The notes below the pieces were generated by a model that saw only the letters and a program-made list of their open reading frames with translations, was not told the DNA's origin and made no database searches. A DNA stretch of 47,507 nt from Deltaproteobacteria bacterium. GTDB lineage: Bacteria; Desulfobacterota; Dissulfuribacteria; Dissulfuribacterales; UBA3076. The stretch lies in the NCBI GenBank assembly GCA_019310825.1, contig JAFDDO010000001.1:1-47507 (forward strand), written 5' to 3'. Shown in pieces: positions 17,988 to 39,319 of the stretch (the first letter of the stretch is position 1; each line of letters starts with the position of its first letter). A program made the position numbers and the translations under genes.

Positions 17988-18189
17988 AGTCCATCCGGCA
18001 TAAAAACAACTTAGCGCTTATGCCTAATGACCTTGTACTTACTCAAACATTATACCACTTAGATTGTGGCTGTCTCAAAATTCAGGCATCTAAGAGCATA
18101 GGATCATCAGAACAGGCGTTGACACCTTTACGTCAGATGGTAGGTTGAGCCTGCCTTTTTCTGAGAACAAGCATGGGGAGAAGAAGATT

Positions 18190-19992
18190 ATGCATAAGAA
18201 GACAATCTTAGTCGTAGGTTCCGGAGGACGCGAACACGCCCTTTGCTGGAAGCTGGCTTCCAGCCCCAGGATTTCAAGAGTATTCTGTGCTCCTGGAAAT
18301 GCTGGCATAAGTCAACATGCCGTCTGTGTACCTTTAAAAGTCTCTGACATTAAAGGCCTTGTATCATTTGTCAAAAAGGAGGGTATCGATATAACGTTAG
18401 TAGGTCCGGAAACCCCTCTGACTGAAGGTCTGGTAGATAAATTTAACGAACATGGACTTGCAGTATTCGGACCTACAAAAGCGGCTGCTGAGATTGAGGC
18501 AAGTAAGGTATTTTCAAAAGATTTACTCACTGAGGCAGGTATACTAACAGGGGCCTACAAGGTCTTTACCGAGCCTAATGCCGCTTTTGATTATATCAAG
18601 AACATAGTTGGAGTGCCCATTGCAATAAAGGCAGACGGGCTGGCAGCCGGCAAGGGAGTGTTGATCGCCCACTCACTTGCTGAGGCGGAAGAGGCAATAG
18701 ATCTCATCCTTTGCAAAAAGGCCTTTGGTAAAGCAGGCAATTGTCTGATAGTAGAGGAATTTCTCGCCGGGGAAGAAGCCTCCTTCATGGCTATAACCGA
18801 CGGAACAACAGTCCTTCCCCTTGCCACTTCTCAGGACCATAAGCCCATATTTGATAATGATCAGGGGCCTAATACCGGCGGTATGGGTGCTTACTCTCCA
18901 GCACCAGTGGTAAGCGGTGCCCTATTTGACGATATCATGGACACGGTTATGAGACCCACAGTAGAAGCCATGGCAAGGGCAAAAAGGCCTTATCAGGGAG
19001 TACTTTATGGTGGCCTTATAATTAAAGATGATGTGTTTAAGGTCTTGGAATTTAACTGCCGGTTCGGTGATCCAGAGGCCCAGCCGATCCTGATGCGACT
19101 TAGCACTGACCTGATGGAAGTATTTGAGGCAGCACTTGAAGGCAGGTTAAATGAAGTCAAACTTGAGTGGGACCCAAGGGCTGCTGTCTGCGTTGTCCTG
19201 GCCTCTGGAGGCTATCCTGGAAGCTATGAGACAGGCAAGGTCATCCACGGCCTGGAAAAAGTGGCTGAGATGCAAGACGTAATGGTCTTCCACGCAGGGA
19301 CTGCCAAGGATGGAGACCGATTCGTCACATCTGGTGGAAGAGTTCTGGGGATTACGGCACTTGGTAATACAATTCCAGAAGCGATAGAACTTGCATATAA
19401 AGCAGTTGGTCAAATTTCCTGGGAAGGCATGCACTATAGAAGGGATATTGGTCAAAAGGCCCTCGGATACACGTCCGGTGCGACCAGTACGCCTGTTTCC
19501 TCGCATCTCGGCATCTCTGCCAAGGTAGGTATTGTCATGGGAAGCCTCAGTGACAAGGAGGTTATGGAAGCAGCCAGGGATATCCTGAATGAGTTTGGTA
19601 TTGCATATGAGTTGAGGGTTGCCTCAGCACATCGCTCCCCGGAACTTACTGCATCATACGCCAGGGAGGCAGAAACTAGAGGAATAAAGGTCTTAATAGC
19701 CGGCGCCGGAATGGCCGCACACTTGGCCGGCAGCTTGGCAGCTAATACTATACTCCCTGTAATAGGGGTACCAGTAAACAATTCGGCATTGAATGGACTT
19801 GATGCCTTGCTCTCCACTGCCCAGATGCCCCCTGGAGTCCCTGTTGCAACTATGGCAATAGGAGAAGCCGGGGCAAAAAATGCCGCCTTGCTGGCACTTC
19901 AGATCCTGGCACTGGAAGATCAGGACCTTGCAAGGAAATTAAAAAAATACAGAGAGGCCCAGGCAAGAGAGATAGAAGAGGTTAAACTTTAA
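18190..19992 (+). CDS. purD: Fusion protein: phosphoribosylamine-glycine ligase (PurD) + N5-CAIR mutase (PurE)
   Basis: N-terminal KILVVGSGGREHAL...ATP-grasp...GGRVLGITA is PurD. The C-terminal ~160 aa are PurE (KVGIVMGSLSDKEVM...SAHRSPE...AGMAAHLAG...PVIGVPV). ATG 18190 follows GGGGAG. Confidence 0.9.
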   Translation: MHKKTILVVGSGGREHALCWKLASSPRISRVFCAPGNAGISQHAVCVPLKVSDIKGLVSFVKKEGIDITLVGPETPLTEGLVDKFNEHGLAVFGPTKAAAEIEASKVFSKDLLTEAGILTGAYKVFTEPNAAFDYIKNIVGVPIAIKADGLAAGKGVLIAHSLAEAEEAIDLILCKKAFGKAGNCLIVEEFLAGEEASFMAITDGTTVLPLATSQDHKPIFDNDQGPNTGGMGAYSPAPVVSGALFDDIMDTVMRPTVEAMARAKRPYQGVLYGGLIIKDDVFKVLEFNCRFGDPEAQPILMRLSTDLMEVFEAALEGRLNEVKLEWDPRAAVCVVLASGGYPGSYETGKVIHGLEKVAEMQDVMVFHAGTAKDGDRFVTSGGRVLGITALGNTIPEAIELAYKAVGQISWEGMHYRRDIGQKALGYTSGATSTPVSSHLGISAKVGIVMGSLSDKEVMEAARDILNEFGIAYELRVASAHRSPELTASYAREAETRGIKVLIAGAGMAAHLAGSLAANTILPVIGVPVNNSALNGLDALLSTAQMPPGVPVATMAIGEAGAKNAALLALQILALEDQDLARKLKKYREAQAREIEEVKL

Positions 19993-20876: not shown

Positions 20877-21944
20877 ATGCGCATAATACGTGAATTTTGG
20901 TTACCTGTCTTACTCTACTTAGTTTTTCTATCCGGTTATCAGATCTGGAAAGAATGTACTCTGCCTGTTTCTGAAACAGGCAGAAGCAAGATCGTATTAA
21001 TTCCAACGGGGAGCAGCTTCTCCTCAGCAACACAACAACTTGAAACAGAAGGTTTAATCAAATCCAAAAAGGCATTTTATTGCCTGGCCTGGTTGAAAGA
21101 TGCAACAACCAAAATAAAGGCGGGAGAATACGAGCTCTCTCCAACTCAAACTCCTGCAGAGATCCTGGATTACTTGGTCCATGGAAAAATCCGCCAATAT
21201 ATCGTTACCATTCCAGAAGGCTATAACCTGTTTCAGATAGATAACCTTCTTGCAAATGCAAAATTGATATCAAAAGATTCATTTCTCAATGTGGCAAGGG
21301 ACAAAAACATCTTAAGAACTTTGGGTATAAAGGCTGATAGCGCCGAGGGCTATGTTTACCCTGACACCTATCAACTGACCAAGGACGCTACGGCATATGA
21401 GATGCTCCGCACCTTTGTAAATCATTTCTGGGAAGTATGGAATTCAGCAAAATTCAGCCGCAGAACAGAAAAACTAGGTGTTAAAATACACGATATAGTA
21501 ACCATTGCTTCCATAGTTGAAAAAGAGGCCATGCGGTCAAGAGAAAGGCCTCTAATTGCTTGCGTATTTTGGAATCGCCTAAAAAAAAATATGCCTCTCC
21601 AGGCAGATCCGACCGTCCACTACGGAATACTTGTGGAAACAAAAGCAAAAAAGCGCCGTCTTAGGTGGAAAGATCTTAGAAAAAACACTCCCTATAACAC
21701 TTACGTAAACAGGGGTCTTCCCAATGGACCAATTTCAAACCCCGGCAAGGAATCCATAAGGGCGACTCTCTATCCATCAAAAAAGAATTATTTCTATTTT
21801 GTTTCAAAAAATAATGGGACACATTGTTTTTCCCAGACTCTGGCTGAACATAATAGGGCTGTAAATAAGTATCAACGCCGGCGCAAATACCGGCCCAGAA
21901 AAAAGACCAACCCTGATTCAACACAAACCAATACCCCACTTTGA
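20877..21944 (+). CDS. mltG: Endolytic murein transglycosylase MltG (YceG-like)
   Basis: N-terminal TM helix, EGYVYPDTYQL, ASIVEKEA, LQADPTVHYG, YNTYVNRGLPNGPISNPG. Confidence 0.85.
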   Translation: MRIIREFWLPVLLYLVFLSGYQIWKECTLPVSETGRSKIVLIPTGSSFSSATQQLETEGLIKSKKAFYCLAWLKDATTKIKAGEYELSPTQTPAEILDYLVHGKIRQYIVTIPEGYNLFQIDNLLANAKLISKDSFLNVARDKNILRTLGIKADSAEGYVYPDTYQLTKDATAYEMLRTFVNHFWEVWNSAKFSRRTEKLGVKIHDIVTIASIVEKEAMRSRERPLIACVFWNRLKKNMPLQADPTVHYGILVETKAKKRRLRWKDLRKNTPYNTYVNRGLPNGPISNPGKESIRATLYPSKKNYFYFVSKNNGTHCFSQTLAEHNRAVNKYQRRRKYRPRKKTNPDSTQTNTPL

Positions 21945-22244: not shown

Positions 22245-22694
22245 ATGTTCAGAGGACGGTCGGCCCATGTCTTGGATGCCAAGGGCCGTCTTAGCATTCC
22301 AGCCCGTTTTAAAGAGTTCTTACAGGCAAAATACGATAGCAGGTTGATAGTCACCAACCTGCCCTCTTGCCTCGCAGCTTATCCTTTTGAGGAATGGCGA
22401 AAGATAGAAGAACATTTCAGCCAGTTCCAATTTGGACCTCCTGAAGTCGTAGCCTTTAAAAGGTACTTGTTAGGAGCAGCAGCGGAGTGTCCCCTGGATG
22501 GCCAGGGGAGAATATTGATACCCCTGAGGCTTCGTGAAGAGGCAGGACTGACTAGAGATGTGGTTCTCTCGGGCATGCTCACCTATTGTGAAATATCAAA
22601 CAAGGATAACTTGAACAAAGAATTGCAAAAAACGAGGGATAACTTTGACCAGTACAGCAGCGATATCACCTCTAAATTCGGAATTAGCGGCTAG
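22245..22694 (+). CDS. mraZ: Transcriptional regulator MraZ
   Basis: MFRGRSAHVLDAKGRLSIPARF...DGQGRILIP shows the double SpoVT/AbrB-like repeats. First gene of the dcw cluster. Confidence 0.95.
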   Translation: MFRGRSAHVLDAKGRLSIPARFKEFLQAKYDSRLIVTNLPSCLAAYPFEEWRKIEEHFSQFQFGPPEVVAFKRYLLGAAAECPLDGQGRILIPLRLREEAGLTRDVVLSGMLTYCEISNKDNLNKELQKTRDNFDQYSSDITSKFGISG

Positions 22695-22704
22695 AAAGGA
22701 GACT

Positions 22705-23610
22705 ATGCATGTCCCTGTAATGGTCTCCGAAGTGCTAAACGGCCTGTCGTTGAGGCCCGGTGGGATCTATGTTGACGCAACGCTGGGCCTGGGAGGCCAT
22801 ACAGAGGCCATACTGTCAAAGTGCCCTGAAGTCAAAATGGTCCTTGGCCTTGACCATGATACAGAAGCCCTGGAACAGGCCGAATCCAGATTGGCCCCAT
22901 TTGGGGACAGGGTTCGATTCATTCACAGCAACTTCATCCATCTTCACGATGTTCTCTTGTTCAACAAAATAGAGCAAGTTGATGGGATACTCATGGACCT
23001 TGGAATTTCCAGCTTCCATCTGGAAAACAGCAGGAGGGGCTTCAGCTTCTCCAGGGACGAACCTCTTGACATGCGTATGGATACATCTGCTGGTGCAGTG
23101 ACTGCTGCTAACATGGTCAACAAGCTTCCTGTTGAAAAATTGACCAAGCTTATCCAAACATACGGGGAAGAGAGATGGGCAAAGAGAATCGCCAAACGCA
23201 TATATGACAGGCGGAAGACAGCCCCGATTCTGAACTCAACGGACTTGGCAGAAGTGGTTGCTAATTCCATTCCAAGGAAATACCATCCACGCCGAATTCA
23301 TCCTGCCACACGGACCTTCCAGGCACTGCGAATCGCGGTGAACCGAGAGCTGGACAACCTTAAAGAGGCTCTTGACTCACTCCCGTCTTGTCTGAGACCC
23401 GAAGGGCGAATGTGTATTATCTCCTTTCACTCCCTGGAGGACCGTCTGGTTAAAATCGCTTTCAGAGAAGATAAAAGATTGAAACCCTTAACCAAAAAAC
23501 CTCTGGTACCAAGTCGTGAAGAAATGCGAAGTAATCCCAGGGCCAGAAGTGCCAAGCTAAGAATTGCTCAATATATGGAGCCCAACGAGACTCAATTTAA
23601 ATTAATATGA
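22705..23610 (+). CDS. rsmH: 16S rRNA m4C1402 methyltransferase RsmH (MraW)
   Basis: HVPVMVSEVL...YVDATLGLGGH...GILMDLGISS...ISFHSLEDR. ATG 22705 follows AAAGGAG. Confidence 0.95.
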   Translation: MHVPVMVSEVLNGLSLRPGGIYVDATLGLGGHTEAILSKCPEVKMVLGLDHDTEALEQAESRLAPFGDRVRFIHSNFIHLHDVLLFNKIEQVDGILMDLGISSFHLENSRRGFSFSRDEPLDMRMDTSAGAVTAANMVNKLPVEKLTKLIQTYGEERWAKRIAKRIYDRRKTAPILNSTDLAEVVANSIPRKYHPRRIHPATRTFQALRIAVNRELDNLKEALDSLPSCLRPEGRMCIISFHSLEDRLVKIAFREDKRLKPLTKKPLVPSREEMRSNPRARSAKLRIAQYMEPNETQFKLI

Positions 23611-23646
23611 TGAACTTCTTGCAAAACCTGCTTTGGGAGAAAAAAA

Positions 23647-24009
23647 ATGAGTCCTCGATCAGCAACAATTAGAATACCCCAAAGACGTTCATATGTTCCG
23701 ATGGCACAGAAAAACAGCGCCGGCAGCAGTCTTTCATTCTCAAAAATACTCAAGATAACCCGTCATAAGACCATAGCGCTCATTGCTCTAGCCGCCTTAT
23801 TAATTCTGGGATTCTGGATCACTCACGAAATCCGAAAAACAGCAAATGACTTAGAGTTGCTTCAGATAGAGAAAGGCCGTCTCAGTGCTCAATATCAGGA
23901 TTTCAGCATTCAAATGGACCAGATCAAAGCACGCAGCCGTATGGAAAAATTGGGGAGGAAAATGGGACTTCACCCACCCACTGGCAGACAAACAATATTT
24001 CTTAACTGA
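23647..24009 (+). CDS. ftsL: Cell division protein FtsL-like (small bitopic coiled-coil protein)
   Basis: Position between rsmH and ftsI, a single TM helix (IALIALAALLILGFWI), and a following coiled-coil ending in MGLHPP. Confidence 0.65.
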   Translation: MSPRSATIRIPQRRSYVPMAQKNSAGSSLSFSKILKITRHKTIALIALAALLILGFWITHEIRKTANDLELLQIEKGRLSAQYQDFSIQMDQIKARSRMEKLGRKMGLHPPTGRQTIFLN

Positions 24010-24020
24010 TAAAGATCAGA

Positions 24021-25778
24021 ATGAGCTTTCCTTATAAAAACAAGAGGATTTTGTTCCTTTTCAGCCTCGCAGGTCTTGTGATCATTGCTACGTCGTCTGT
24101 TGGTTGTTTTTGGCAGAGCAATAATGTTAATAGCGAAGATAACATTGATTCGTCTAGGCTTTCTCAACAACGGGGCAGTGACTACTATTCCCAGCAAAGC
24201 CCCCTGTACAAGGGCATAATTCTTGATAGGACAGGAGCGATATTCGCCGTAAGCCAAAAAACAATTTCTGCCCTAGTAAGGCCTTCCAAGTTGCCGCAAG
24301 TTGATGATTGGGTACCACGGGTATCAGAAATCCTTGGCCTTGATCACCAAACTTTGGCAAACATGCTTGCAGAGGAGCGGGGCGTTATCTGTCTAAAAGA
24401 CGGCATTTCCGTAAAACAAGGCCTGAAGCTCAAAGACATGCAGCTTAAAGGAATAGAAATACTGGAAAAATATAAAAGGGTATATCCTTGCGGTTCACTG
24501 GCCTCTCCGGTTTTGGGTTTTGTCGATCAAGGCGGCAGAGGCCTTGAGGGAATTGAATACACATATGGCAGCCTTTTAAGCCACACTAGTTTGCCACAAA
24601 TTCACGCAGGTGGCCATGAGCTTACGCTTACCCTTGAAAAAAACATTCAGTCATCAGCGGAAAAAGAGCTTGGCAGGCAGATGAAAAGGCTTAAGGCCGA
24701 CAAAGGCTGTCTTGTTATAATGAGTGTTGAAAACGGTGAGATCCTTGCCCTTGCCAGCAAGCCTTCCTGGGACCCGGAACGTTTTTGGGAACTACCTGCG
24801 ACGAATATTACAAATTACTCTCTGCAAGATAATGTTGACCTGATGGTCCTTGCGCCTCTTCTAAACTGGATGTTTGAACAAAGTAAGCTTCCAAAATCAG
24901 AAATCCCGTCTTTGGACGAAATGGCCCACAAGTGTCAATGGGAGATTTTGGGTAAAGGTCTGGTCCTATGGAGTCCCTGGAATGAACAGGAGCTGAAAGA
25001 TATCGTCTCTTATGACGACATGTCAAGGGATCTCTGGGATCTGGGTTTTGGTCAGTCTACAGGTATTGACCTTCCGGGTGAAGGCCAAGGCAGCCTGTCA
25101 TCAACCCTGCCAAGGTCACAGAATTGCTTCTTAGGCCGGGCTATCACAGCCAGTCCGATACAGATTCTCAGGGCCTTCTCTGCCCTGATAAATAAAAATA
25201 TATTGGTGACACCACACGTGGCCCTACAAAGCCCTAATGAATTCCTGACATCTGAGTCTTCTGTGAAGGACCAAAGGCAGTCCAAAATCCCATGGTTAAC
25301 AGAAAAGCTTATACTCAAATTGCGGAAAAACCTCGCGGTCAGAGGAGGACCTTCTCTTGCGAGCATTAGGTGGGATGAACAGTCTGAGCAAATATCTACT
25401 CAATTTCCAGCCCAGGTCACTGCCCTGGGATTCTGGCCCGACAAATCACCCAAAGTAAGTTATATTGTTTTGCTCGACGGCGTAAAAGTTGACCCTCGTG
25501 AACGTCGGGGCACCCTAGGACGATCACTAATAGTAGCGAAACAGGCGGCACAAATACCCTTGAAAAACGAATGGCGAACGGTAAAAAGCCAGGAGACCAA
25601 AAAAGAACTCTCCAGGATGCCAAATCTTAAGGGAAAATCCGTAAGGCAGGCCTTGGATATTCTGCAAGCCATAGGCATTTCCATCAAACTCAAAGGTGTA
25701 GGGACTGTGATCGCACAGAAACCAAGATCAGGAATATCTCTTAATGGTGTGAAGGTCTGCAGCATAACCTGTAAGTGA
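24021..25778 (+). CDS. ftsI: FtsI/PBP3-like class B PBP homologue with C-terminal PASTA domain; catalytic motifs apparently degenerate
   Basis: PBP-dimer signature YPCGSLASPVLGFVDQGGRGLEGIEY and VIMSVENGEILALASKPSWDP, transpeptidase-fold landmarks GFGQSTGIDLPGE and ITASPIQILRAFSALIN, and PASTA MPNLKGKSVRQALDIL...VIAQKP. See the findings for the missing motifs. Confidence 0.8.
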   Translation: MSFPYKNKRILFLFSLAGLVIIATSSVGCFWQSNNVNSEDNIDSSRLSQQRGSDYYSQQSPLYKGIILDRTGAIFAVSQKTISALVRPSKLPQVDDWVPRVSEILGLDHQTLANMLAEERGVICLKDGISVKQGLKLKDMQLKGIEILEKYKRVYPCGSLASPVLGFVDQGGRGLEGIEYTYGSLLSHTSLPQIHAGGHELTLTLEKNIQSSAEKELGRQMKRLKADKGCLVIMSVENGEILALASKPSWDPERFWELPATNITNYSLQDNVDLMVLAPLLNWMFEQSKLPKSEIPSLDEMAHKCQWEILGKGLVLWSPWNEQELKDIVSYDDMSRDLWDLGFGQSTGIDLPGEGQGSLSSTLPRSQNCFLGRAITASPIQILRAFSALINKNILVTPHVALQSPNEFLTSESSVKDQRQSKIPWLTEKLILKLRKNLAVRGGPSLASIRWDEQSEQISTQFPAQVTALGFWPDKSPKVSYIVLLDGVKVDPRERRGTLGRSLIVAKQAAQIPLKNEWRTVKSQETKKELSRMPNLKGKSVRQALDILQAIGISIKLKGVGTVIAQKPRSGISLNGVKVCSITCK

Positions 25779-28700
25779 TGTTTGGTAATACACAAAACGA
25801 AAGGACATTGCGGGATATGTTAGAAGTGCTGAGACCTCCTGTTTCTATATCACCTGAGCTGGATGACGTAAAAATCAGGGGCATAACCGCAGACTCCAGA
25901 CAGGTAAAACAGGAATACATATTTGTTGCAATTCCAGGCACTGAATTTGATGGAAGACAGTTTATCAATGATGCCGTGCTGAAAGGAGCATCTGCCCTGT
26001 TAATGCCAAGTCAAGATGTACATCGTTACCTCAAGACCGTTCCTGGAGCACTTCCTGTTATAGGAGTGGACGACCCCAGGCTTTCAACCGGTCTTCTGGC
26101 GAGTGCCTTTTATGGAAATCCCAGTAAAAAAATGGCCCTTATAGCCATTACAGGCACTAATGGTAAGACTACGATCACATACCTCCTGGAAAGCATTTTC
26201 AGCAAAGCCGGGCTGAATCCTGGTGTAATCGGGACTGTAAACCAGAGACATTGTGGCATTGAGGTACCTTCTGAACTCACTACCCCCAATGCTATAAAAC
26301 TGCAGGAGATCCTGGCCAACATGTTGAAACAAGGGGCAAAGACAGTGGCCTTAGAGGTATCTTCCCACGCCCTTGACCAACAAAGGATCTCAGGATGTAG
26401 TTTCGCAGCGTCTATTTTTACCAATCTGGGCCGCGATCATCTGGATTATCATCAGGACATGGAACAATACTTCCAGGCCAAGGTAAAATTGTTTTTGGAG
26501 TATCCCTCTGATACGGCAATTATCAACATTGATGACTTGTATGGAAAGCGCCTATGGGAGATATTACAAAAGGAAAAGATCAGTTATGGCCTCAATCCTG
26601 AGGCCGAGGTAAGACCCACGTTCCAGACCATTAATATTGATGGAATAACAGGTAAGCTTGCCACGCCCAAAGGGCCTGTTTCTATCAAATCCAAGCTTAT
26701 AGGTTTGCACAATCTATACAATATCCTTGCAGCAGTCGCGGCTTCAATCACCCTTGGGATTGATCCAGACCATATTCAGACCGGCATAGAATCAATAATG
26801 CGTATCCCGGGGAGACTCGATCCTGTGCATACCCCCCAGGGAGTGACCGCCCTTGTAGACTATGCCCACACTCCTGACGCCCTTGAAAGTGTTCTGAACA
26901 GCCTTATCAGATTAGGTCCCAAGCCTCTGATTTGCGTAATCGGCTGTGGAGGAGACAGAGACAGGGGCAAGCGTCCTCTCATGGCGAAGGTAGCTGCTTC
27001 ACTGGCAGATATTGTTGTACTGACCTCGGACAATCCTCGTACTGAAGACCCTCTGGCAATAATCGATCAGATGTTGAACGGCCTCAGAGACCTTCCTCCT
27101 TATCACCATGCAACCAAAGCTGAAGTAAAGGTAATTCCAGCCAGAAAAGACGCTATTTTATGGGCAGTAGAAAAAGCGCGGCCTGGTGCCTGTCTGCTCG
27201 TGGCCGGGAAGGGCCACGAAACCTACCAGATAATTGGCAACGAACGACTTGCCTTTGACGATAGAGAAATATTGAAAAAGGCCTTTGGGACGAGGGGTAA
27301 GGGACAAAGGTCGAAGGTCGAAGGTCGAAGGTCGAAGTCAGAGAGTCAAAAGTCAAAGGTAGAGAGTCTTGAGGATCAGGGATTTCGAATAAAGGCTTCT
27401 CAGGTGGCAACGGCTATTGGAGCCAATGTCCTTTCGGGTGACCCGGATACAGAAATCCATGGCATATCAACAGATTCCAGATCAGTAAGAAAAGGAAATA
27501 TCTTCTGGGCACTTTCAGGGGACCGTTTCAATGGTCATGATTTTGTCCTTGATGTTATAAAAAAAGGGGGCATTGGTGCAGTAATCAGTTCTAGCTTTGA
27601 CTTTCGAGCTTTGACTTTAAGCCCTCGATCTCGTCCTATCCTATTGCAAGTCCAAGATGTGTTAAAGGCCCTGGGAGATTTCGCAGCATGGTATAAAGAA
27701 CACCTTGGAATCAAGGTGGTTGGCATTACGGGCAGTTGTGGCAAGACCACTACAAAAGAACTGATTTTCTCGATCCTGGAAAAAAAATGGAAAGTGACTA
27801 AAACGCCCGGGAATTTTAATAACCTTATCGGACTCCCGCTCAGCCTGCTTTCGGCCAAATCCGATGATTCCTGGGCAGTTCTGGAAATGGGAACGAACCA
27901 ACCAGGAGAAATACCCCGGCTGTGTGAAATTGCCCGGCCACAAGTGGGCCTTATTACTACCATACAGCCTGCCCACCTTGTCGGCCTGGGGGGCATAAGG
28001 GAAGTAGCCAGGGAAAAATGGAAACTTTGGCGAGCCCTTCCCCAAACAGGTGCGGCAGTGGTGAACCTTGACGATCCTCTGGTGATGGAAGGGGCCAAAG
28101 ATCTGACGTGCCAGGTGGTGGGCTATTCTCTAACACCTAATCCCCAATTCAAAATTCAAAATTCAAAATTCAAAACTGCAATTACCTGCCTATCATGGAC
28201 CCCTGGCGAGCATGGCACTCTGCTGGATCTTGATATTACCGGAAGCAGACTCTCTGTTGATCTTCCCCTTATAGGAGGAGTGAACGTGCAAAATGCCGTT
28301 GCAGCCGCAGCTACAGGCCATGCAATGGGGCTGACACCGGCCCAGATCAAGCAAGGGCTGGAGGGAGTAAAACCAATTCCGGGCCGCCTTTTTCTGAAAA
28401 ATTTTGGACCTAAATGGAGGCTGATAGACGATTCTTATAATGCAAACCCAGGCTCTATGAGAGCGGCTCTTGAGGCTCTCGATCTCTGGAGCAGGGGCGA
28501 AAAAAAGATAGCGATCCTGGGAGACATGCTGGAACTCGGGGATGCTGCCCACGACTTCCACCAGGATCTTGGACGACTTTCAGCTAATACAGGAGTTGAT
28601 CTTTTAGTCTTCGTAGGCGAATTTGCAGATGCTGTTTCCAAAACTGCCCAAAAGGCTGGTATTTCGCAAAAGGCTATTCGTATCTTCCCCAACACGGAGG

Positions 28701-28834
28701 ATTTGCTTTCCTGGATAGAATCAGCCGCCCTTGATTGCATGCCCTCTCCAGCAACCATACTTGTGAAGGGATCACGGGCCATAGGTCTTGAAAAAGCAGT
28801 GGATGCCCTTATCAGGCATCTGAGAGAGGAATAG
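25778..28834 (+). CDS. murE/murF: Fused MurE (UDP-MurNAc-tripeptide synthetase) + MurF (UDP-MurNAc-pentapeptide synthetase)
   Basis: One continuous 1019-aa frame. The MurE part has [18 protein letters not shown] and DNPRTEDP. A repeat-encoded linker follows, about 27287-27385. The MurF part has [28 protein letters not shown] and [11 protein letters not shown]. The ATG overlaps the ftsI stop (TGATG). Confidence 0.9.
27308..27370. repeat. Tandem heptamer array (GGTCGAA x4 then AGTCAAA-type units) encoding the MurE-MurF linker
   Basis: aggtcgaaggtcgaaggtcgaaggtcgaagtcagagagtcaaaagtcaaaggtagagag, translated as [21 protein letters not shown]. Confidence 0.85.
27589..27633. repeat. Inverted partner array (ctttgacttt units) inside the murF portion
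   Basis: ttctagctttgactttcgagctttgactttaagccctcgatctcg. Its reverse complement contains aaagtcaaagctaga, matching aaagtcaaaggtaga at 27349-27364. It encodes [14 protein letters not shown]. Confidence 0.75.
28145..28176. repeat. Tandem heptamer array AATTCAA x4 in frame in the murF portion
   Basis: caattcaaaattcaaaattcaaaattcaaaac encodes [12 protein letters not shown]. Confidence 0.85.
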
Positions 28835-28838
28835 GGCT

Positions 28839-29918
28839 ATGCTCTTTCATCTGCTATATCCCCTCCACGACATTTGGCCCGCATTTAATGTTTTTCGCTA
28901 TATCACATTCAGGACAATATATGCGGCTGTTACTGCCCTCTCAATAATATTGTTTTTTGGGCCTTGGTTCATAAAATCTATGTGTGCAATGCAGATGGGC
29001 CAGGTCATCAGGGACGATGGACCTGCAAGGCATCACGCAAAAGCCGGAACACCAAGCATGGGGGGCATATTAATCGTTGGGTCCATCCTGGTTGCCACAC
29101 TCCTGTGGGCGGACCTAAGGAATCTTTACGTGTGGATAAGCATTTTAATCCTTGTCAGTTACGGCACAATAGGCCTTGCAGACGATCTGTTGAAGATCAA
29201 AAAACAGAACAGCTCAGGCCTATCCGGCAGATGGAAGCTCGCCTGGCAAATAGTCTTTGTGCTTTTAGCCGCATGTATAATTGCCGCACATGGTAAGTGG
29301 GATACCCATCTTAGTATCCCGTTTTTTAAGAACTTTCAGCCTGATCTCGGAATTATGTACGGTCTTTTTGCCCTGCTTGTGGTCGTTGGGACCTCCAATG
29401 CGGTTAATCTGACCGATGGCCTAGACGGGCTTGCTGCCGGCCCCTTCATAATAGCTGCAGCAGTCTACACCCTGTTTACATACCTTGCCGGCCACTCGAC
29501 TCTTGCCCAATATCTCCAGATTCCTTCGGTTCCCGGCGCAGGAGAACTTGCAGTGTTTTGTGGCGCAATGGTAGGAGCCGGCTTGGGTTTTCTCTGGTAC
29601 AACACCTATCCTGCAGAAATCTTCATGGGAGATGTAGGCTCCCTTTCTACAGGCGGTGCCCTGGGAACAGTAGCCGTACTCTCAAAGCAAGAAATGCTGC
29701 TTGTAATTGTAGGTGGAATCTTCGTAGTTGAGGCATTATCCGTAATTCTTCAGGTCTTTTACTTCAAAACAACAGGAGGCAAGAGGATCTTCCGTATGGC
29801 TCCCATCCATCACCACTTTGAGCTTAAGGGATGGAAAGAGCCAAAGGTCATCGTGAGATTCTGGATAATTTCTATATTGCTTGGGCTGGTAGCAATCAGC
29901 ACGCTCAAGCTAAGATAA
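28839..29918 (+). CDS. mraY: Phospho-N-acetylmuramoyl-pentapeptide transferase MraY
   Basis: Polytopic membrane protein with [22 protein letters not shown] and MGDVGSL motifs. Confidence 0.95.
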
Positions 29919-29990
29919 AAAAATTAGTGATTTGGTGATTGAAATGTCTGTGTGTGTCTGTGGCTAATGAATTAATGACTGGGTAATTGA

Positions 29991-31412
29991 GTGGAACTGA
30001 AAGGCAAAAAAGTAACAATACTGGGCATGGGGGTATCCGGCCAGGCAGCTGCCGGATGGATCGTCTCTCAAGGGGCACAAGTCATATGCAGTGACTTAAA
30101 TCCCCTGGAAAAGTGGCCTAAGGGCCTGGCGGGCTGGTGTAACAAAAATGGTGTTGTAATAGAGACAAAAAAACATAAGGTAGAGACCTGCCTCTCATCC
30201 GACCTGATAGTGGTTAGCCCCGGTGTTTCACCTGTAATCCCTGCCCTTGAGGCAGCACGCAGATCCAATATCCCTGTGGTTGGTGAAATGGCCCTCGCGG
30301 CATCCTGCTGGAAAGGACCTCTGGTTGGCATCACCGGCACAAACGGAAAAACCACTACCACGATGCTTGTGGATGAAATGCTAAAAAAGGCCAATGTGCC
30401 TCATGTAAGGGCCGGGAACATTGGAACACCATTATCAGCATTTATTGAAGAACATACTGAGGAAACTATCGCGGTCCTTGAGATTAGCAGCTTCCAATTG
30501 GATTATTTCCCAAGGACCAGATACTTCTCCTTCACTCCTCCAAGGTTCAAGACAACAGCATGGCTCAATCTTGCCCCGGACCACCTTGATCGCTACCAGG
30601 ACATCAAAAGTTACGGAGATAGCAAGGCGGTAATCTATGACTTCCAAGGGCCTGAGGATTGGGCTATCCGCAACATGGACGACAAGGAACTAGAAGCGTG
30701 GAAGTACAGAGGACGTGCTAAAAGGCTCTACTTCGGGATGCTGCGCCCCGGAGTTCCAGGAGCCGGGCTGGACACCTCTTTGAAAAAAATCAACGTCATG
30801 TGGTCTGATAATAAATGGGAGGAATATGACTTAGAAAGCTGGTCCCTAAGGGGTCGACATAATATTGAAAACCTGGCTTGTGCCATACTTATGTCACGCC
30901 TGGCAGGTGCAGGTGCTGGTGCAGTACAGTCTGTTATCCAAAGCTTCAAAGCGGCACACCACAGACTTCAGTTGGTGGTCCAAAATGGGGGCATCGACTA
31001 TTATGACGACTCCAAGGCCACCAATGTTGCATCTGTACTTCGCGCACTGGAGTCCATAGATCAGCCAATAGTGCTCATCGTGGGCGGCCGCGGCAAGGGT
31101 GAAAATTATGCTTCCCTGGCCGAGGCCACAAAAAAGGCACGTATTCGTGGTACGATTGTTATGGGCGAAGAGGCCAAGGCGCTTGAAAAAGTCCTAAGTA
31201 AGGTAGTGCCGGTTATTCAAGTACGTGGAACAAAAAACGGCAAAAAGACTATGAGAAAAGCCGTGGAGGAAGCCACGTCCCTGGCTGAGCCTGGTGATGC
31301 CATACTCCTTTCCCCGGCCTGTTCCAGCTTTGATATGTTCAAAAATTATGAAAAACGTGGCGTGGCCTTTCAGGAGGCAGCCAGGAAATTGTGTAATTTG
31401 GCGATTGAGTAA
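29991..31412 (+). CDS. murD: UDP-N-acetylmuramoylalanine-D-glutamate ligase MurD
   Basis: [22 protein letters not shown], and a C-terminal domain with DDSKATN. GTG start. The last 6 codons and the stop lie in a repeat array. Confidence 0.9.
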   Translation: MELKGKKVTILGMGVSGQAAAGWIVSQGAQVICSDLNPLEKWPKGLAGWCNKNGVVIETKKHKVETCLSSDLIVVSPGVSPVIPALEAARRSNIPVVGEMALAASCWKGPLVGITGTNGKTTTTMLVDEMLKKANVPHVRAGNIGTPLSAFIEEHTEETIAVLEISSFQLDYFPRTRYFSFTPPRFKTTAWLNLAPDHLDRYQDIKSYGDSKAVIYDFQGPEDWAIRNMDDKELEAWKYRGRAKRLYFGMLRPGVPGAGLDTSLKKINVMWSDNKWEEYDLESWSLRGRHNIENLACAILMSRLAGAGAGAVQSVIQSFKAAHHRLQLVVQNGGIDYYDDSKATNVASVLRALESIDQPIVLIVGGRGKGENYASLAEATKKARIRGTIVMGEEAKALEKVLSKVVPVIQVRGTKNGKKTMRKAVEEATSLAEPGDAILLSPACSSFDMFKNYEKRGVAFQEAARKLCNLAIE

Positions 31413-31544
31413 TTTGGTAATTTTAGGAACGGAATTTTAATTTAAAAACGCAGATGTAAGCAGATTGTGAATTTAACTATGAGTCGAGACACACATAAGC
31501 ACAAAACGATCACCAAATTATCAAATTATCAAATTATCAAATTA
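31393..31544. repeat. Inverted pair of octamer arrays (taatttgg / ccaaatta-tcaaatta) bracketing the murD-murG junction
   Basis: Left arm gtaatttggcgattgagtaatttggtaatttt (31393-31424) contains the murD stop. Right arm caccaaattatcaaattatcaaattatcaaatta (31511-31544) encodes the murG N-terminal TKLSNYQIIKL. Confidence 0.8.
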
Positions 31545-32684
31545 GTGGTGGCTGGTGGTGGCACAGGCGGGCATGTGTTTCCCGGAATGGCAGTGGCTGA
31601 GGCCATGGAGTCCTATGGCCGCATAGATATTCTATGGATAGGTACAGGCCGCCCGGTGGAAAAAATGGCGCTTTCAGGACGTAAATGGGCTTACCAAATA
31701 CTGGAAACAAGGCCTTTGCGGGGCTCAGGCCTTGCGGGGACCATACGCTCTCTGGCTGGACTTCCTTTCTCCACGATCAGGGCTTTTTCGTGGCTCAAAT
31801 CATTTAGGCCTCATGTAGTACTTGGTGTCGGGGGATATGTCTCCGGGCCCGTACTTCTTGCAGCGCGTATGCTGCGGATACCTGCAGCCCTCCACGAGCA
31901 AAACCTTATCCCTGGGCTCACAAATCGTTTGGCCTCTAGATTTGCAAAAACAGTGTTTGTGAGCTTTAAAAAAACTGTAAAATACTTCCCAAAAAATAGG
32001 GTAATTTTTACTGGAAATCCCGTACGGAAAAGCATAATTCAATCACAAAAACAAAAATTACCAAATTACCAAATTACCAAATTACCAAATCTTCTGGTTT
32101 TGGGAGGCAGTCAAGGTGCCAGATGCCTGAACCGGCTTGCCGGTTCGGCCATAAAGGTTTTGTGGCAATCCGACTTTCATTTGGAAATTATTCACCAAAC
32201 CGGCAAGCTGGATGTGTCATATGTTGAGAAATTTTACAAGGATGCAAATATTCCGGCCAAAGTGACCCCATTTATCTCCAACATTGGTGAATCCTATTCA
32301 TGGGCAGATCTAGTTATCTGCCGAGCAGGAGCGAGTACTCTGGCTGAACTCGCAACCATGGGGAAGCCATCGATACTCATTCCCTATCCCTGGGCAACGG
32401 AAAGCCATCAGGATGCCAACGCCAGAGAACTGAGTGAAGCCGGGGCTGCCAAATACTTCCTTGAAGGAGAAATCGGTGCTATAAAACTGGCAGGAGAGAT
32501 ACAGTCTTTGCTGGAGGATCCCCAAAAACTCATCAATATGGGAGAAAATGCTCGAAAACTTGAAAAACCCACGGCAGCTGCAGAGATGGCCTCTACACTG
32601 ATAGAGATGGCTGGACATACTTTTTCATATTCTGAAACAGAAACTAATTCATTGAAAGGTTCTATAGTACGTAACCATGTATAA
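31467..32684 (+). CDS. murG: UDP-GlcNAc:lipid I N-acetylglucosaminyltransferase MurG
   Basis: VVAGGGTGGHVFPGMAVA, LVLGGSQGA and GASTLAELA motifs. The start is ambiguous (GTG 31467, ATG 31479, GTG 31545/31548) and none has a clear SD. Confidence 0.9.
   Translation: MNLTMSRDTHKHKTITKLSNYQIIKLVVAGGGTGGHVFPGMAVAEAMESYGRIDILWIGTGRPVEKMALSGRKWAYQILETRPLRGSGLAGTIRSLAGLPFSTIRAFSWLKSFRPHVVLGVGGYVSGPVLLAARMLRIPAALHEQNLIPGLTNRLASRFAKTVFVSFKKTVKYFPKNRVIFTGNPVRKSIIQSQKQKLPNYQITKLPNLLVLGGSQGARCLNRLAGSAIKVLWQSDFHLEIIHQTGKLDVSYVEKFYKDANIPAKVTPFISNIGESYSWADLVICRAGASTLAELATMGKPSILIPYPWATESHQDANARELSEAGAAKYFLEGEIGAIKLAGEIQSLLEDPQKLINMGENARKLEKPTAAAEMASTLIEMAGHTFSYSETETNSLKGSIVRNHV
32055..32090. repeat. Tandem octamer array AAATTACC x4 in frame in the murG interdomain linker
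   Basis: aaattaccaaattaccaaattaccaaattaccaaat encodes KLPNYQITKLPN. Confidence 0.85.
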
Positions 32685-34071
32685 GAAACAACATATGCAT
32701 TTTGTAGGAATCGGCGGAATAGGCATGAGCGGCCTTGCACAGGTCCTTCTTAATCTCGGATATAGAGTCACGGGTTCTGATTTGCGTGAGACCGAAATCA
32801 CCAGGTCTCTAAGAAAACTGGGGGGCACAATTTACAAAGGTCACGCTCCTGAAAATATCCATGGCGCCGATGTGGTGGTGATTTCCTCTGCTGTCAGAGA
32901 GAACAACCCTGAGGTTCAGGAAGCTTATTCTGCCCAAATCCCAGTCATACCAAGGGCTGAAATGCTTGCGGAATTGATGCGGCTCAAGAAGTTCGGCATA
33001 GCAGTGGCTGGGGCCCATGGAAAGACCAGCACGACTTCTATGATCTCTTCAGTGCTCCGTGCCGGTGGCCTTGATCCAACAGTCATCATAGGAGGAAAGG
33101 TAAATGGCCTGGGGAGTAATGCCTGCTGGGGACAGGGAGAATTCCTGATAGCAGAAGCCGATGAGAGTGACGGAAGCTTCCTGCGCCTTACACCAAGCAT
33201 AGCTGTAGTAACCAATATAGACAAGGAACACCTGGACTATTATTCAGACCTGAATGCCATAATTCGGTGTTTTCTGGACTTCATAGACAAAATCCCTTTC
33301 TATGGTCTTGCCATACTCTGTGGAGATGATCCCCGCCTCAGAGAAATGCTCCCGGTAGTAAAAAAACGGGTAATGACATATGGGACAGGACCTGAGTCTG
33401 ATCTGCAGGCCAGAGATATCACCTTTGAAGGTCTGGGAGTATCTTTCAAGGCATGGTGGCAAAATTCTGAACTTGGCGAGATACGACTCAAGGTCCCCGG
33501 ACTGCACCATGTAAGAAATTCTTTGGCTGCAATGGCCCTAGGACTTGAACTTGAGATACCTTTTCACAAAATCCAGACCGGTCTTATGTCATATGAAGGT
33601 GTAAGCAGACGATTTGAGATATTGGGTGAAATAGAGGGAATAACAGTAGTAGATGACTACGCACACCACCCTACTGAGATACAGGCTACCCTCTCAGCTG
33701 CCAGGGCATGTTGGCCTGAACGCCGGCTCGTGGTTCTTTTTGAACCCCACCGCTACAGCAGAACCCAGGCATTAATGGACGATTTCACCACGGCCTTCGG
33801 GGAAGCTGATGAACTATGGTTGACGGAAATCTATCCAGCCAGCGAAACTCCCATAGTAGGAGTCAGCGGAAAACGTCTGGCAAAAAATATCAGGGATAAA
33901 CGTGGTGGACCAGTGCACTATGTAGAGTCCTGCGGGGATCTTCCTCGGGCAGTTGTACCAAGCCTGCAGGAGGGTGACGTGGTAATGACTCTTGGGGCCG
34001 GTGCCATAGGGCGTATGGGACCAAAAATTCTGGACAGGCTTAGGACAAAGGAGTCAGCGCTTGCTCTATAA
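32677..34071 (+). CDS. murC: UDP-N-acetylmuramate-L-alanine ligase MurC
   Basis: HFVGIGGIGMSGLA, GAHGKTSTTSM, DDYAHHPTEI. Overlaps the murG end by 8 nt. Confidence 0.95.
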   Translation: MYKKQHMHFVGIGGIGMSGLAQVLLNLGYRVTGSDLRETEITRSLRKLGGTIYKGHAPENIHGADVVVISSAVRENNPEVQEAYSAQIPVIPRAEMLAELMRLKKFGIAVAGAHGKTSTTSMISSVLRAGGLDPTVIIGGKVNGLGSNACWGQGEFLIAEADESDGSFLRLTPSIAVVTNIDKEHLDYYSDLNAIIRCFLDFIDKIPFYGLAILCGDDPRLREMLPVVKKRVMTYGTGPESDLQARDITFEGLGVSFKAWWQNSELGEIRLKVPGLHHVRNSLAAMALGLELEIPFHKIQTGLMSYEGVSRRFEILGEIEGITVVDDYAHHPTEIQATLSAARACWPERRLVVLFEPHRYSRTQALMDDFTTAFGEADELWLTEIYPASETPIVGVSGKRLAKNIRDKRGGPVHYVESCGDLPRAVVPSLQEGDVVMTLGAGAIGRMGPKILDRLRTKESALAL

Positions 34072-35038
34072 GGATCTAAAAAGGATAGAAGGTCTCCAGG
34101 TCAGTGAGAGTATTCCGCTCTTACCGCTAACAAGCTTCCGTATAGGCGGACCTGCGCATCTATTCCTGGCTCCAAGGACCTTGAAGGCCCTTGAACAAAC
34201 CATTTCTTATCTCAGCAATCGTTTTATATCCTATAAGGTGCTGGGCCAGGGAAGCAACCTGTTGATCAGCGATAAAGGCGTGAAGCTAGTTATGTCCCTG
34301 GCGGCTCTAAATCGTATCCACTGCTCTGTAGGAAGCAAATTCGAGCATGAAGACCATCGGCAAATTTCCTCTAACGCCTCTTTACAACAAGGGAGAACAT
34401 CTCATGGCTATCCCTTTAAGACAGTATCTGTAGAGGCAGGATGCAGGCTGAAGTCTCTTATTTCCTGGTCCATGCGCAACGGCCTGTGTGGTCTTGAGAA
34501 TCTTTCGGGCATTCCGGCTAGTGTGGGGGGGGCCATATCCATGAACGCCGGCACCAACAAGTGCTTCATGGCAGAAGCGATAGACGCTGTGCAAATTACA
34601 GGCCCTGACGGAAGTTGCTGGTTCAGGAGAGATCAACTGCAATTTGATTACAGGACTTTCAGACTACAGGACAAAGCTCTTATCTCTGCCGCAAGAATTC
34701 AATTTTGTAAAAGCAGCACTGATCAGATCAGACAACGTATCAGAAACGTGATGTACAAACGGAAAACCACACAGCCTTTGGGAAAACCAAGCGCAGGGTG
34801 CATTTTCAGAAATCCTCAGGGAGATTCAGCTGGAAAGCTCATAGACCGATGTGGACTCAAAGGTCTTAGAATTGGGGATGCTGAGGTATCCAAAAGGCAT
34901 GCAAATTTTATTGTAAACCGTGGAAAAGCCAGTGCCGTACAGGTAATGGACTTGCTGGAAATCATTAAAAAGCGTGTAAAAAAAGAGGCTGATGTAGAAC
35001 TTGTCCCAGAAGTATCTGTTTGGGGTATGGAAACATGA
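34061..35038 (+). CDS. murB: UDP-N-acetylenolpyruvoylglucosamine reductase MurB
   Basis: LTSFRIGGPA, LGQGSNLL, GIPASVGGAISMNAG, SAGCIFRNP. TTG start overlapping the murC end. Confidence 0.9.
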   Translation: MLYKDLKRIEGLQVSESIPLLPLTSFRIGGPAHLFLAPRTLKALEQTISYLSNRFISYKVLGQGSNLLISDKGVKLVMSLAALNRIHCSVGSKFEHEDHRQISSNASLQQGRTSHGYPFKTVSVEAGCRLKSLISWSMRNGLCGLENLSGIPASVGGAISMNAGTNKCFMAEAIDAVQITGPDGSCWFRRDQLQFDYRTFRLQDKALISAARIQFCKSSTDQIRQRIRNVMYKRKTTQPLGKPSAGCIFRNPQGDSAGKLIDRCGLKGLRIGDAEVSKRHANFIVNRGKASAVQVMDLLEIIKKRVKKEADVELVPEVSVWGMET

Positions 35039-35880
35039 AAATTAGAAGGCCCTCTTCAGAATTCAGGTCTTCAGTATGTAGCTCCGGCTCGCGGGACAAA
35101 TCTGCCAAACCGGTATTTTCCTTGTCGTGGTCTATCCACCCTAAAATATTGGTTGGCTTAGCCATAATGTGCATTGGCTTTGTCGGCTTTTTTGTATGTC
35201 GATATTGGGCATGTCAATCTGATCTTTTCAGGATTTGTCAAGTTCTGGTGAAAGGCTGCGATCATGTAACAGAAGATGAGATTTTGCAACTGAGTGATGT
35301 GACCGCCCAGGACAATCTGCTGTCTCTCGATCTGAAATCAATTGCAACGTCCATAGAGGCGCATCCCTGGATCCATGCCGTTGAAGTTAAGAAAAAATTG
35401 CCGGATCACCTAATGATTAAGATCAAAGAACGTACGCCGGTAGCCTTATTGAACTCTGACAAAATGTATTTGGTTGATGAACAAGGTAAAATTATCGATA
35501 AGCTTTTAACGAAAGAGCGTTTTTCTCTCCCAATCATTACAGGAATTGATCCTAAAAACATTATAGATCACCAAATCAACAAATCAACAAATCAACAAAT
35601 CCAAAAGGCCATGGAATTAATATCCATGGCAAGCAAAGGCACAAGAACTCTAGGTGTCAACAATGTTAGCCAAATAGACATAGCCAAAAGAGAAACTTTA
35701 GTACTCTATACATCTGACAGCGCTATTCCTTTTTATTTTGACACTAAAAATCTCAGCGCCCAATTCAGTAAGGCGGAAAAAATCCTATATCAACTCTATC
35801 GTTCAGGAATATATAAAAAAGTAGCTAAAGTTGAGCTGGATTACGGCCCTGGCCAGGCCCTAGCCAGTCTGAAACATTAG
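35035..35880 (+). CDS. ftsQ: Cell division protein FtsQ (POTRA domain)
   Basis: ATG overlaps the murB stop (ATGA). TM helix, then POTRA (VLVKGCDHVTEDEIL...IEAHPWIHAVEVKKKLPDHLMIKIKER), in the position upstream of ftsA. Confidence 0.85.
   Translation: MKIRRPSSEFRSSVCSSGSRDKSAKPVFSLSWSIHPKILVGLAIMCIGFVGFFVCRYWACQSDLFRICQVLVKGCDHVTEDEILQLSDVTAQDNLLSLDLKSIATSIEAHPWIHAVEVKKKLPDHLMIKIKERTPVALLNSDKMYLVDEQGKIIDKLLTKERFSLPIITGIDPKNIIDHQINKSTNQQIQKAMELISMASKGTRTLGVNNVSQIDIAKRETLVLYTSDSAIPFYFDTKNLSAQFSKAEKILYQLYRSGIYKKVAKVELDYGPGQALASLKH
35569..35602. repeat. Tandem octamer array CAAATCAA x3-4 in frame in ftsQ
   Basis: caccaaatcaacaaatcaacaaatcaacaaatcc encodes HQINKSTNQQIQ. Confidence 0.85.
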
Positions 35881-35888
35881 GAGAGGAA

Positions 35889-37112: not shown

Positions 37113-37150
37113 AAAAATTCCTAACCTGTTCGAGTTGGAGGACCAAGCAT

Positions 37151-38369: not shown

Positions 38370-38393
38370 CTTCAATCTTCAATCTTCAATTCC
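38370..38393. repeat. Tandem heptamer array CTTCAAT x3 supplying the last codons and stop of cdaR (minus strand)
   Basis: cttcaatcttcaatcttcaattcc. The minus-strand reading gives ...ELKIED followed by the stop. Confidence 0.8.
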
Positions 38394-39316: not shown

Positions 39317-39319
39317 AGA

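Follow-up and report, generated by a model that had tools for sequence, protein, structure and literature searches.

The division and cell wall (dcw) operon on contig JAFDDO010000001.1 of a bacterium from the Dissulfuribacterales (assembly GCA_019310825.1; the 47,507-nucleotide stretch analysed, positions 1 to 47,507, is referred to as the window) carries in the place of ftsI a gene whose product retains the fold of FtsI/PBP3 but in which all three catalytic motifs are replaced. We refer to the gene as ftsI* and to its product as FtsI*. By its position and by the fold of its product, ftsI* is an orthologue of ftsI. We infer that the product is a pseudoenzyme and that the gene has been kept for a non-catalytic role in division. 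FtsI* fails the defining catalytic features of penicillin-binding proteins of class B (bPBPs), and should therefore be classed as an FtsI-derived pseudoenzyme rather than as a D,D-transpeptidase. In the clade of sulfur-cycling bacteria that carries it, the division wall is probably not built as textbooks describe. The FtsW–FtsI pair, a major target of antibiotics, is regarded as an essential and nearly universal engine of septal wall synthesis. The sole established exception found in our literature search is that of Clostridioides difficile, described in 2023.

Catalytic motifs and fold of FtsI*

The window contains a 585-amino-acid (aa) open reading frame (ORF) with an ATG start at 24021-25778 on the + strand. 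These are exactly the coordinates given in the initial annotation, and every landmark peptide quoted there is present in the translation. The initial annotation had further suggested that the protein lacks the SxxK, SxN and KTG motifs, and we located the corresponding positions by alignment. Using phmmer against the PDB, residues 60-265 of the query aligned with residues 58-283 of Pseudomonas aeruginosa PBP3 and the alignment resumed only at 338-393, the first segment ending 11 residues short of Ser294 of PBP3. Ungapped extension placed Ser294 at V276 and Lys297 at P279, the same mapping was obtained in alignments with canonical sequences, and the EPGSTFK block was absent from FtsI* when set against a profile of 61 canonical homologues. 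The K-T-G region was left unaligned by hmmalign to the canonical profile, and MAFFT with mixed sequences was used for the mapping. The positions obtained are as follows.

24846-24857, + strand: V276-L-A-P279, the equivalent of S-x-x-K (phmmer, profile and alignments)
24972-24980, + strand: S318-P319-W320, the likeliest equivalent of S-x-N (MAFFT and spacing to GFGQ; alignment-dependent)
25365-25373, + strand: I449-R450-W451, the equivalent of K-T/S-G (MAFFT; predicted beta3 strand at residues 446-450)

A faster MAFFT run moved motifs 2 and 3 by a few residues (motif 3 by ∼4). The alignments gave no S-x-x-K, S-x-N or K-T/S-G at the catalytic sites. For motif 1, the loss was confirmed, but nucleotides 24831-24842 (residues 271-274), where it had been placed, lie 2-5 residues upstream of the aligned site. 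The loss of S-x-N also held, but by the MAFFT alignment and the spacing to GFGQ the SYD at residues 330-332 (25008-25016) is probably not its site, having been misplaced by 12 residues. The IRW at the K-T-G position was found exactly where it had been noted.

A scan of the whole protein found no occurrence of K-[ST]-G. Stray SxxK sequences are present at residues 212 and 413 and stray SxN sequences at 366 and 404; each of them falls within a linker helix or a loop modelled with low confidence, and they are kept among the closest relatives only. Across the family of FtsI* relatives described below, the Ser column of motif 1 is V, I, P, L, M or A and the Lys column is mostly P, and W320 is present in 22 of 25 sequences. 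The replacements of the nucleophile Ser, the general-base Lys, S-x-N and K-T/S-G are mostly hydrophobic or aromatic. As judged from these alignments, FtsI* cannot be a serine D,D-transpeptidase, and it is predicted to be unable to cross-link peptidoglycan or to be acylated by beta-lactams.

We considered whether the domain might have acquired a new active site or activity, for example as a hydrolase with a different nucleophile. The transpeptidase-like domain is under purifying selection (see below) and has residues that are conserved specifically in the family (W307, W317, W320, Q465, W472 and Y481), both of which would fit such an activity. However, the family-specific residues are mostly aromatic or hydrophobic, as is typical of packing or binding surfaces, and the segment that held the former nucleophile is the least conserved part. 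The domain has no Ser, Lys, Cys or His that is conserved in the family, making a relocated nucleophile unlikely, and no Asp that is conserved family-specifically either. The residues that are shared with real PBPs are N265, G342/G344, E354, Q381, G470, P473 and P477, so that the conserved polar residues N265, E354 and Q381 are those common to canonical PBPs. We consider a cryptic enzyme to be very improbable.

The fold itself is preserved. PF03717 (PBP_dimer) matched residues 65-169 with 37.4 bits (cut-off 24.4) and PF03793 (PASTA) matched residues 532-572 with 32.7 bits (cut-off 23.2). PF00905 (Transpeptidase) matched in two pieces with 50.4 bits, which is above its cut-off of 22.1 and far under a normal score. 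None of the NCBIfam bPBP equivalog models (FtsI, PBP2 and SpoVD) came near its cut-off; the best match was to TIGR02214 (spoVD; 138.7 bits, cut-off 688), and the FtsI model NF011685 scored 55.8 bits (cut-off 737). An AlphaFold2 model built from an 84-sequence alignment had a mean pLDDT (predicted local distance difference test) of 81 and a pTM (predicted template modelling score) of 0.74. It consists of a membrane helix at residues 8-31 and a disordered linker at 30-59, followed by the pedestal, a transpeptidase-like domain of the alpha/beta type and a PASTA unit. The top Foldseek matches of this model were structures of P. aeruginosa PBP3 (E ∼1e-31, TM 0.58-0.68). The Pfam and Foldseek matches together bear out the earlier proposal of a PBP fold followed by a PASTA domain. 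The domains are arranged as follows.

24021-24107, + strand: N-terminal anchor or signal segment, residues 1-29 (pattern scans)
24108-24200, + strand: linker of low complexity, residues 30-60, with predicted disorder (pLDDT under 50 at residues 30-59)
24201-24695, + strand: pedestal (non-penicillin-binding module), residues 61-225 (PF03717; phmmer to PBP3)
24696-25580, + strand: transpeptidase-like domain, residues 226-520, fold kept and catalytic centre lost
25614-25775, + strand: C-terminal PASTA domain (PF03793; alpha/beta unit at residues 541-584 in the model)

The pedestal retains the class B motifs [RK]GxIxDRxG, RxYPxG and GxxGxEGxE. Residues R70, R153, G166, G177 and E179 do not vary within the family and are also found in canonical FtsI; their invariance suggests a preserved contact with FtsQ/FtsL/FtsB or an allosteric core. 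With the fold retained and all three motifs replaced, the sequence supports the earlier proposal that the protein is catalytically dead.

Conservation of the motif-less family

Relatives of FtsI* in the protein database ranged from 100% down to ∼31% identity, with canonical FtsI appearing among the matches only from ∼27% identity downward. Where canonical sequences have R-N-R-A-x-x-D-x-[YF]-E-P-G-S-T-F-K, the family reads N-[YL]-[SA]-L-Q-D-x-V-D-P, and none of the protein-database relatives in the family has K-T-G. A profile search of 1.84 billion representatives returned ∼32 clusters at 50% identity, scoring from 784 to 297 bits, ahead of the canonical sequences; all three catalytic motifs were absent from every one of these clusters. 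As the same losses are found in every member over this range of identities, they are not due to chance. In a neighbour-joining analysis, 36 family sequences formed one split in 40 of 40 bootstraps, and the motif-less family is one deep clade with a single origin. P0060, the best-scoring canonical match, was rejected as the nearest intact sister as it lies in a sporulation-type context (SpoIIE, SpoIIM) and not in a dcw operon.

A second lineage without the motifs was seen in the FtsI slot, represented by P0183 (L096:3411-5288) and P0177. These sequences read NRAITD.YE followed by LGELIN or VRKLIK in place of PGSTFK, have no KTG at the expected site, and keep a C-terminal PASTA-like segment (weak Pfam match). 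P0183 is located after yceG-mraZ-rsmH-ftsL on a contig that ends before murD. The two sequences grouped with the main family in none of the 40 neighbour-joining bootstraps, and FtsI may therefore have lost catalysis more than once.

The members of the clusters include sequences from delta proteobacterium ML8_D (OPL13627.1) and from a C4B57-tagged metagenome-assembled genome (MAG; PXF55520.1), both of which we take to be SEEP-SRB2 genomes; further members are labelled Dissulfuribacterales bacterium or Thermodesulfobacteriota bacterium. SEEP-SRB2 bacteria are sulfate-reducing partners of anaerobic methanotrophic (ANME) archaea. A search with MurD homologues showed that the cultured Dissulfurimicrobium hydrothermale (CP085041.1, a finished 2.0-Mb genome) has the same operon, in the order ftsL, a 535-aa protein, murEF, mraY, murD and murG, and on to ftsZ. 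The 535-aa protein reads ...NYAIKAEVDPSMFF..., ...GPW... and ...FSIRL.... A scan of genome contigs gave three close relatives (L001-L003). One of these, the near-identical contig L001 (JAIWFS010000004.1), has a 90% identical FtsI* in the same bacterial dcw operon and is filed in a MAG labelled ‘archaeon’; it is probably a mis-binned contig of the partner bacterium in an archaeal-bacterial consortium.

The ratio of non-synonymous to synonymous substitution rates (dN/dS, omega) was calculated for the window gene against these three relatives, a check proposed in the initial annotation. The whole-gene omega of ftsI* was 0.22-0.39 and that of the transpeptidase-like domain 0.19-0.35, compared with 0.24-0.27 for murEF, 0.21-0.25 for murD and 0.29-0.32 for ftsL. 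ftsI* is thus under purifying selection similar to that on its neighbours. Over the region 22245-31412, the synonymous rate (dS) to L001-L003 was only ∼0.2 and omega was fairly high for all of the dcw genes (0.10-0.39), a pattern that would fit small populations or a general relaxation of selection in this lineage.

Across the family, conservation of the pedestal and of most of the transpeptidase-like domain is as high as in canonical FtsI. The mean pairwise identity of the transpeptidase-like domain was 0.38 in the family and 0.42 in canonical FtsI. Relaxation is confined to the stretch from motif 1 to motif 2 (0.26 in the family versus 0.41 in canonical sequences). In P0038, P0040, P0052, P0053 and P0057-P0059, 45-80 pedestal residues are missing (window residues ∼85-145), and these residues are dispensable in some lineages.

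These data also bear on whether ftsI* could be a functionless relic or an artefact, i.e. a decaying pseudogene, a frameshifted assembly or a mis-called ORF. The low, split Pfam transpeptidase score is what such a sequence might give, and the NCBI annotation names FtsI* by its domain only. Nevertheless, dozens of independent assemblies and one finished isolate genome carry the gene as an intact ORF whose length is similar, omega is well under 1 in every domain, the AlphaFold2 model is confident, and the operon position is conserved and coupled to murEF. It is hardly conceivable that ftsI* is a relic or an artefact.

At the N-terminus of FtsI*, K6, K8 and R9 are followed by 18 hydrophobic residues (10-27) and then by S-V-G-C29. 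The context of the cysteine (SSVG-C29) meets a PROSITE-type lipobox pattern, this being a pattern match only, and the 18-residue hydrophobic region could also stay as a helix. In pattern scans, a lipobox-like Cys was found in 16 of 33 family representatives compared with 4 of 177 canonical FtsI sequences (Fisher p 1e-11), and in the four canonical sequences the Cys sits inside the helix. Cys following A, G or S recurs across lineages sharing 30-40% identity (IAGC, VAGC, LSGC, ISGC, LVAC, WGC). If processed at C29, FtsI* would lose the transmembrane helix through which canonical FtsI binds FtsW, and the frequency of the lipobox-like Cys among the family representatives argues that helix-specific contacts are dispensable. 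Besides FtsI* itself, the sequences with a lipobox-like Cys include P0050, P0051, P0059, P0155, P0159, P0163-P0166, P0173, L013 and L014.

Residues 1-60 had an omega of 0.17, a value that speaks for the ATG at 24021 being the real start. Alternative starts (some calls of the Prokaryotic Genome Annotation Pipeline, PGAP, give 566 or 575 aa) were rejected given this value, and the shorter product would be without an export signal. At the other end, the PASTA domain is missing from many family members and is therefore dispensable in the family. As there is a weak PASTA match in the intact FtsI (STLK, SSN, KTG) of the canonical locus L015, the domain may be ancestral rather than an added sensor.

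Loss of ftsW from the operon and fusion of murE and murF

FtsI* is encoded between ftsL and murEF in a + strand dcw operon (Pfam matches in the window), and the family protein has the same ftsL-murE position in 15 further family loci. The genes of the operon are as follows.

22245-22694, + strand: mraZ, head of the dcw operon
22645-23610, + strand: rsmH, head of the dcw operon
23647-24009, + strand: ftsL (PF04999, 23.6 bits)
24021-25778, + strand: ftsI*, FtsI/PBP3-derived, 585 aa, no catalytic motifs (ORF, Pfam, AlphaFold2, Foldseek)
25775-28834, + strand: murE-murF fusion, one 1019-aa ORF (two sets of Mur ligase domains)
28839-29918, + strand: mraY (window annotation)
29991-31412, + strand: murD (window annotation)
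31413-31466, no strand: murD-murG junction, 54 nucleotides with no SEDS gene, the usual place of ftsW in canonical dcw operons
31467-32684, + strand: murG (PF03033 and PF04101)
32677-38338, + strand: murC, murB, ftsQ, ftsA and ftsZ, starting at 32677, 34061, 35020, 35889 and 37151, respectively (window annotation)

The start of murEF overlaps the stop codon of ftsI*, and the two genes are translationally coupled. The complete mur set and the remaining divisome genes ftsQ, ftsA and ftsZ are intact in the window, which also encodes the diderm markers OmpH/Skp, an OmpA-domain protein and an AMIN-domain amidase.

The gene for the SEDS-family partner of FtsI, FtsW, is absent from the operon. No ORF in the window matched PF01098 (SEDS), and murD, ending at 31412, is followed after 54 nucleotides by murG, starting at 31467. 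An ftsW gene follows murD in none of 16 family loci, compared with all 22 canonical loci. Using tblastn with a canonical FtsW (from L015), no match was found in the window or in any family locus, and no intact class B PBP was found in the window or in any fetched locus of the family. The control locus L015, a related operon whose MurD is only 39% identical, has a PF01098 gene between murD and murG, and its murE and murF are separate. A protein-database search with the L015 FtsW gave at least 120 matches; all of those listed were at least 59% identical and came from a clade other than the Dissulfuribacterales.

In contrast to the separate genes of most canonical operons, murE and murF form a single ORF in 16 of 17 family loci (3 of 36 canonical loci). 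The linker of the fusion in the window is rich in Lys, Ser and Glu. The murE-murF fusion is a synapomorphy of the clade with the dead FtsI.

Other features of the window were recorded. A YceG/MltG-type lytic transglycosylase gene (20877-21944) lies directly upstream of mraZ; L004, L011 and L096 also have yceG next to mraZ, and D. hydrothermale does not. The genes cdaA (cyclic di-AMP synthase) and ybbR (38372-40117, − strand) directly follow ftsZ downstream, and in D. hydrothermale (L012:19744-21422) cdaA/ybbR are close downstream too, after a phosphoglucomutase-type gene. Two further ORFs join domains: a 615-aa ORF at 18145-19992 has the domains of PurD (GARS N, A and C) together with that of PurE (AIR carboxylase), and a 626-aa ORF at 45060-46940 (− strand) has a homocysteine S-methyltransferase domain and a methylenetetrahydrofolate reductase domain. 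An ORF of 553 aa without any Pfam match (1859-3520) adjoins a small Ras/Arf-like GTPase gene (3622-4239), both on the − strand. Rfam and tRNA scans of the window gave no matches.

Possible roles of FtsI* and comparison with known systems

The reading that we favour, and to which we give an even chance, is that FtsI* is a non-catalytic, FtsI-derived subunit of the divisome in a lineage that abandoned the operon-encoded FtsW–FtsI septal synthase as one unit. A class B transpeptidase acts only on strands made by its SEDS partner, and so the loss of either partner makes the catalysis of the other useless. Abandonment as a unit is favoured because the loss of one partner would explain the relaxation of the other, because the transpeptidase is dead in every lineage, and because the anchor helix that contacts FtsW is apparently replaceable by a lipid anchor. 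FtsI* would then be anchored to the membrane through its helix, or possibly through a lipid in about half of the lineages, with the conserved pedestal docking it to FtsQ/FtsL/FtsB. The rigid head formed by the transpeptidase-like and PASTA domains might serve to place or control a different synthase or hydrolase at the septum. The polymerisation and cross-linking of septal glycan would fall to enzymes encoded elsewhere, either a class A PBP (cf. C. difficile) or RodA-PBP2.

Alternatively, ftsW may have moved elsewhere in the genome, with FtsI* still activating its glycosyltransferase through the anchor and pedestal. This is the strict form of the scaffold role suggested in the initial annotation, and cross-links would be made by a second class B PBP, a class A PBP or an L,D-transpeptidase. 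The invariance of the pedestal signature residues agrees with this model, as does the retention of a membrane helix by D. hydrothermale and by about half of the family. It also has experimental parallels: catalytically inactive, engineered PBP2B and SpoVD are reported to support division or sporulation still, provided that another PBP makes the cross-links (PMC5656894; summarised in PMC12516126). However, it is hard to see why the transpeptidase should have died in every lineage if FtsW had remained its partner, and processing at the lipobox-like Cys, which half of the family has, would take away the helix in contact with FtsW. The deletion of ftsW is moreover clean and universal in the family loci, and no SEDS gene is present in the window or in any of these loci. 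A relocated FtsW partner therefore seems to us possible but rather unlikely.

Several observations weigh against abandonment of the synthase as a unit, or limit how far it can be taken. Half of the family, including D. hydrothermale, has no lipobox-like Cys and keeps a plain helix. The large deletions in the pedestal of some members are a poor fit with an essential contact between pedestal and FtsQLB. The absence of SEDS and intact class B PBP genes covers the window and the fetched loci only, and the placement of motifs 2 and 3 varies with the alignment. Localisation, FtsQLB binding and the lack of beta-lactam binding are predictions from sequence and model. Finally, the dead FtsI, the loss of ftsW and the murEF fusion represent one evolutionary event in one clade, so the contrast between 16 of 16 family loci and 22 of 22 canonical loci reflects co-inheritance and not independent replication.

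A broader proposal would be that a free-living, diderm, FtsZ-dependent clade (SEEP-SRB2, D. hydrothermale and relatives) divides without any FtsW–FtsI synthase, the remnant of FtsI having become a pseudoenzyme with a lipid or helix anchor that couples FtsQLB to another peptidoglycan machine (a class A PBP or RodA-PBP2), much as dead LytM factors or Lpo lipoproteins act for their own enzymes. We put this forward tentatively, as somewhat less probable than an even chance. If true, this would be a second FtsWI-independent route of cytokinesis, independent of that in C. difficile, and natural proof that a conserved function of FtsI is separable from catalysis.

A natural, ancient and selected dead FtsI in an operon without ftsW would surprise specialists in division. 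It has a cultured carrier, which makes two questions testable: in D. hydrothermale, both the non-catalytic role of FtsI and the way in which a diderm constricts without the canonical synthase could be addressed. Division in this clade is predicted to be intrinsically insensitive to PBP3-specific beta-lactams. There is also a risk of mis-annotation, as the names given by the Joint Genome Institute (JGI) are SpoVD, FtsI or PBP2, and metabolic and cell-biological reconstructions of the ANME partners would assume a normal divisome. In our literature search, neither a motif-less FtsI nor a loss of ftsW was described for this group. Cell division is not a topic of the D. hydrothermale genome paper, and the 2025 global survey of bPBPs and SEDS proteins (PMC12516126) mentions neither Desulfobacterota nor catalytic motifs.

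Among known systems, FtsI* most resembles FtsI/PBP3 itself (e.g. P. aeruginosa PBP3, 3PBN and 8BH1), with which it shares the ftsL-murE slot, the anchor-pedestal-transpeptidase fold, the pedestal residues and the best sequence and fold matches. Unlike FtsI/PBP3, it is without the three motifs, its motif 1-2 region is shorter, there is no ftsW beside murD, and part of its family has a lipobox-like Cys instead of a plain transmembrane anchor. At most, FtsI* would do the work of FtsI's non-catalytic half. A second comparison is with EnvC and NlpD (catalytically dead LytM factors), LpoA and LpoB, division or cell-wall proteins that stem from peptidoglycan enzymes or act on them and serve as non-catalytic regulators. 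NlpD, LpoA and LpoB are lipoproteins with flexible linkers, as mature FtsI* would be if it were processed at C29. However, FtsI* has no sequence or fold relationship to any of these four proteins, and a regulatory target of FtsI* is purely hypothetical.

The Bacillus subtilis PBP2B S309A and C. difficile SpoVD variants provide a functional parallel, showing that a bPBP can have an essential non-catalytic role while cross-linking is done by another PBP (PMC5656894; PMC12713402; summarised in PMC12516126). These are laboratory point mutants in which the active site is otherwise intact and the SEDS partner is intact, whereas FtsI* represents a natural loss, ancient and complete, throughout its clade, with ftsW missing from the operon. 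The fused murE-murF is of the same kind as the natural MurE-MurF chimeras already known, e.g. that of Bordetella pertussis (PMC10214165).

As a walled, FtsZ-using bacterium without a canonical FtsW–FtsI septal pair, C. difficile is a precedent for the division proposed here (PMC10693644, PMC12539705); it divides without FtsW–FtsI, using a class A PBP (PMC10693644). C. difficile, however, is a monoderm spore-former, and its dcw-encoded SpoVD/SpoVE pair is catalytically intact and specialised for sporulation. The bacterium of the window is a diderm, the SEDS gene is absent from its operon, and its bPBP has been retained as what is, on the evidence of its motifs, a pseudoenzyme.

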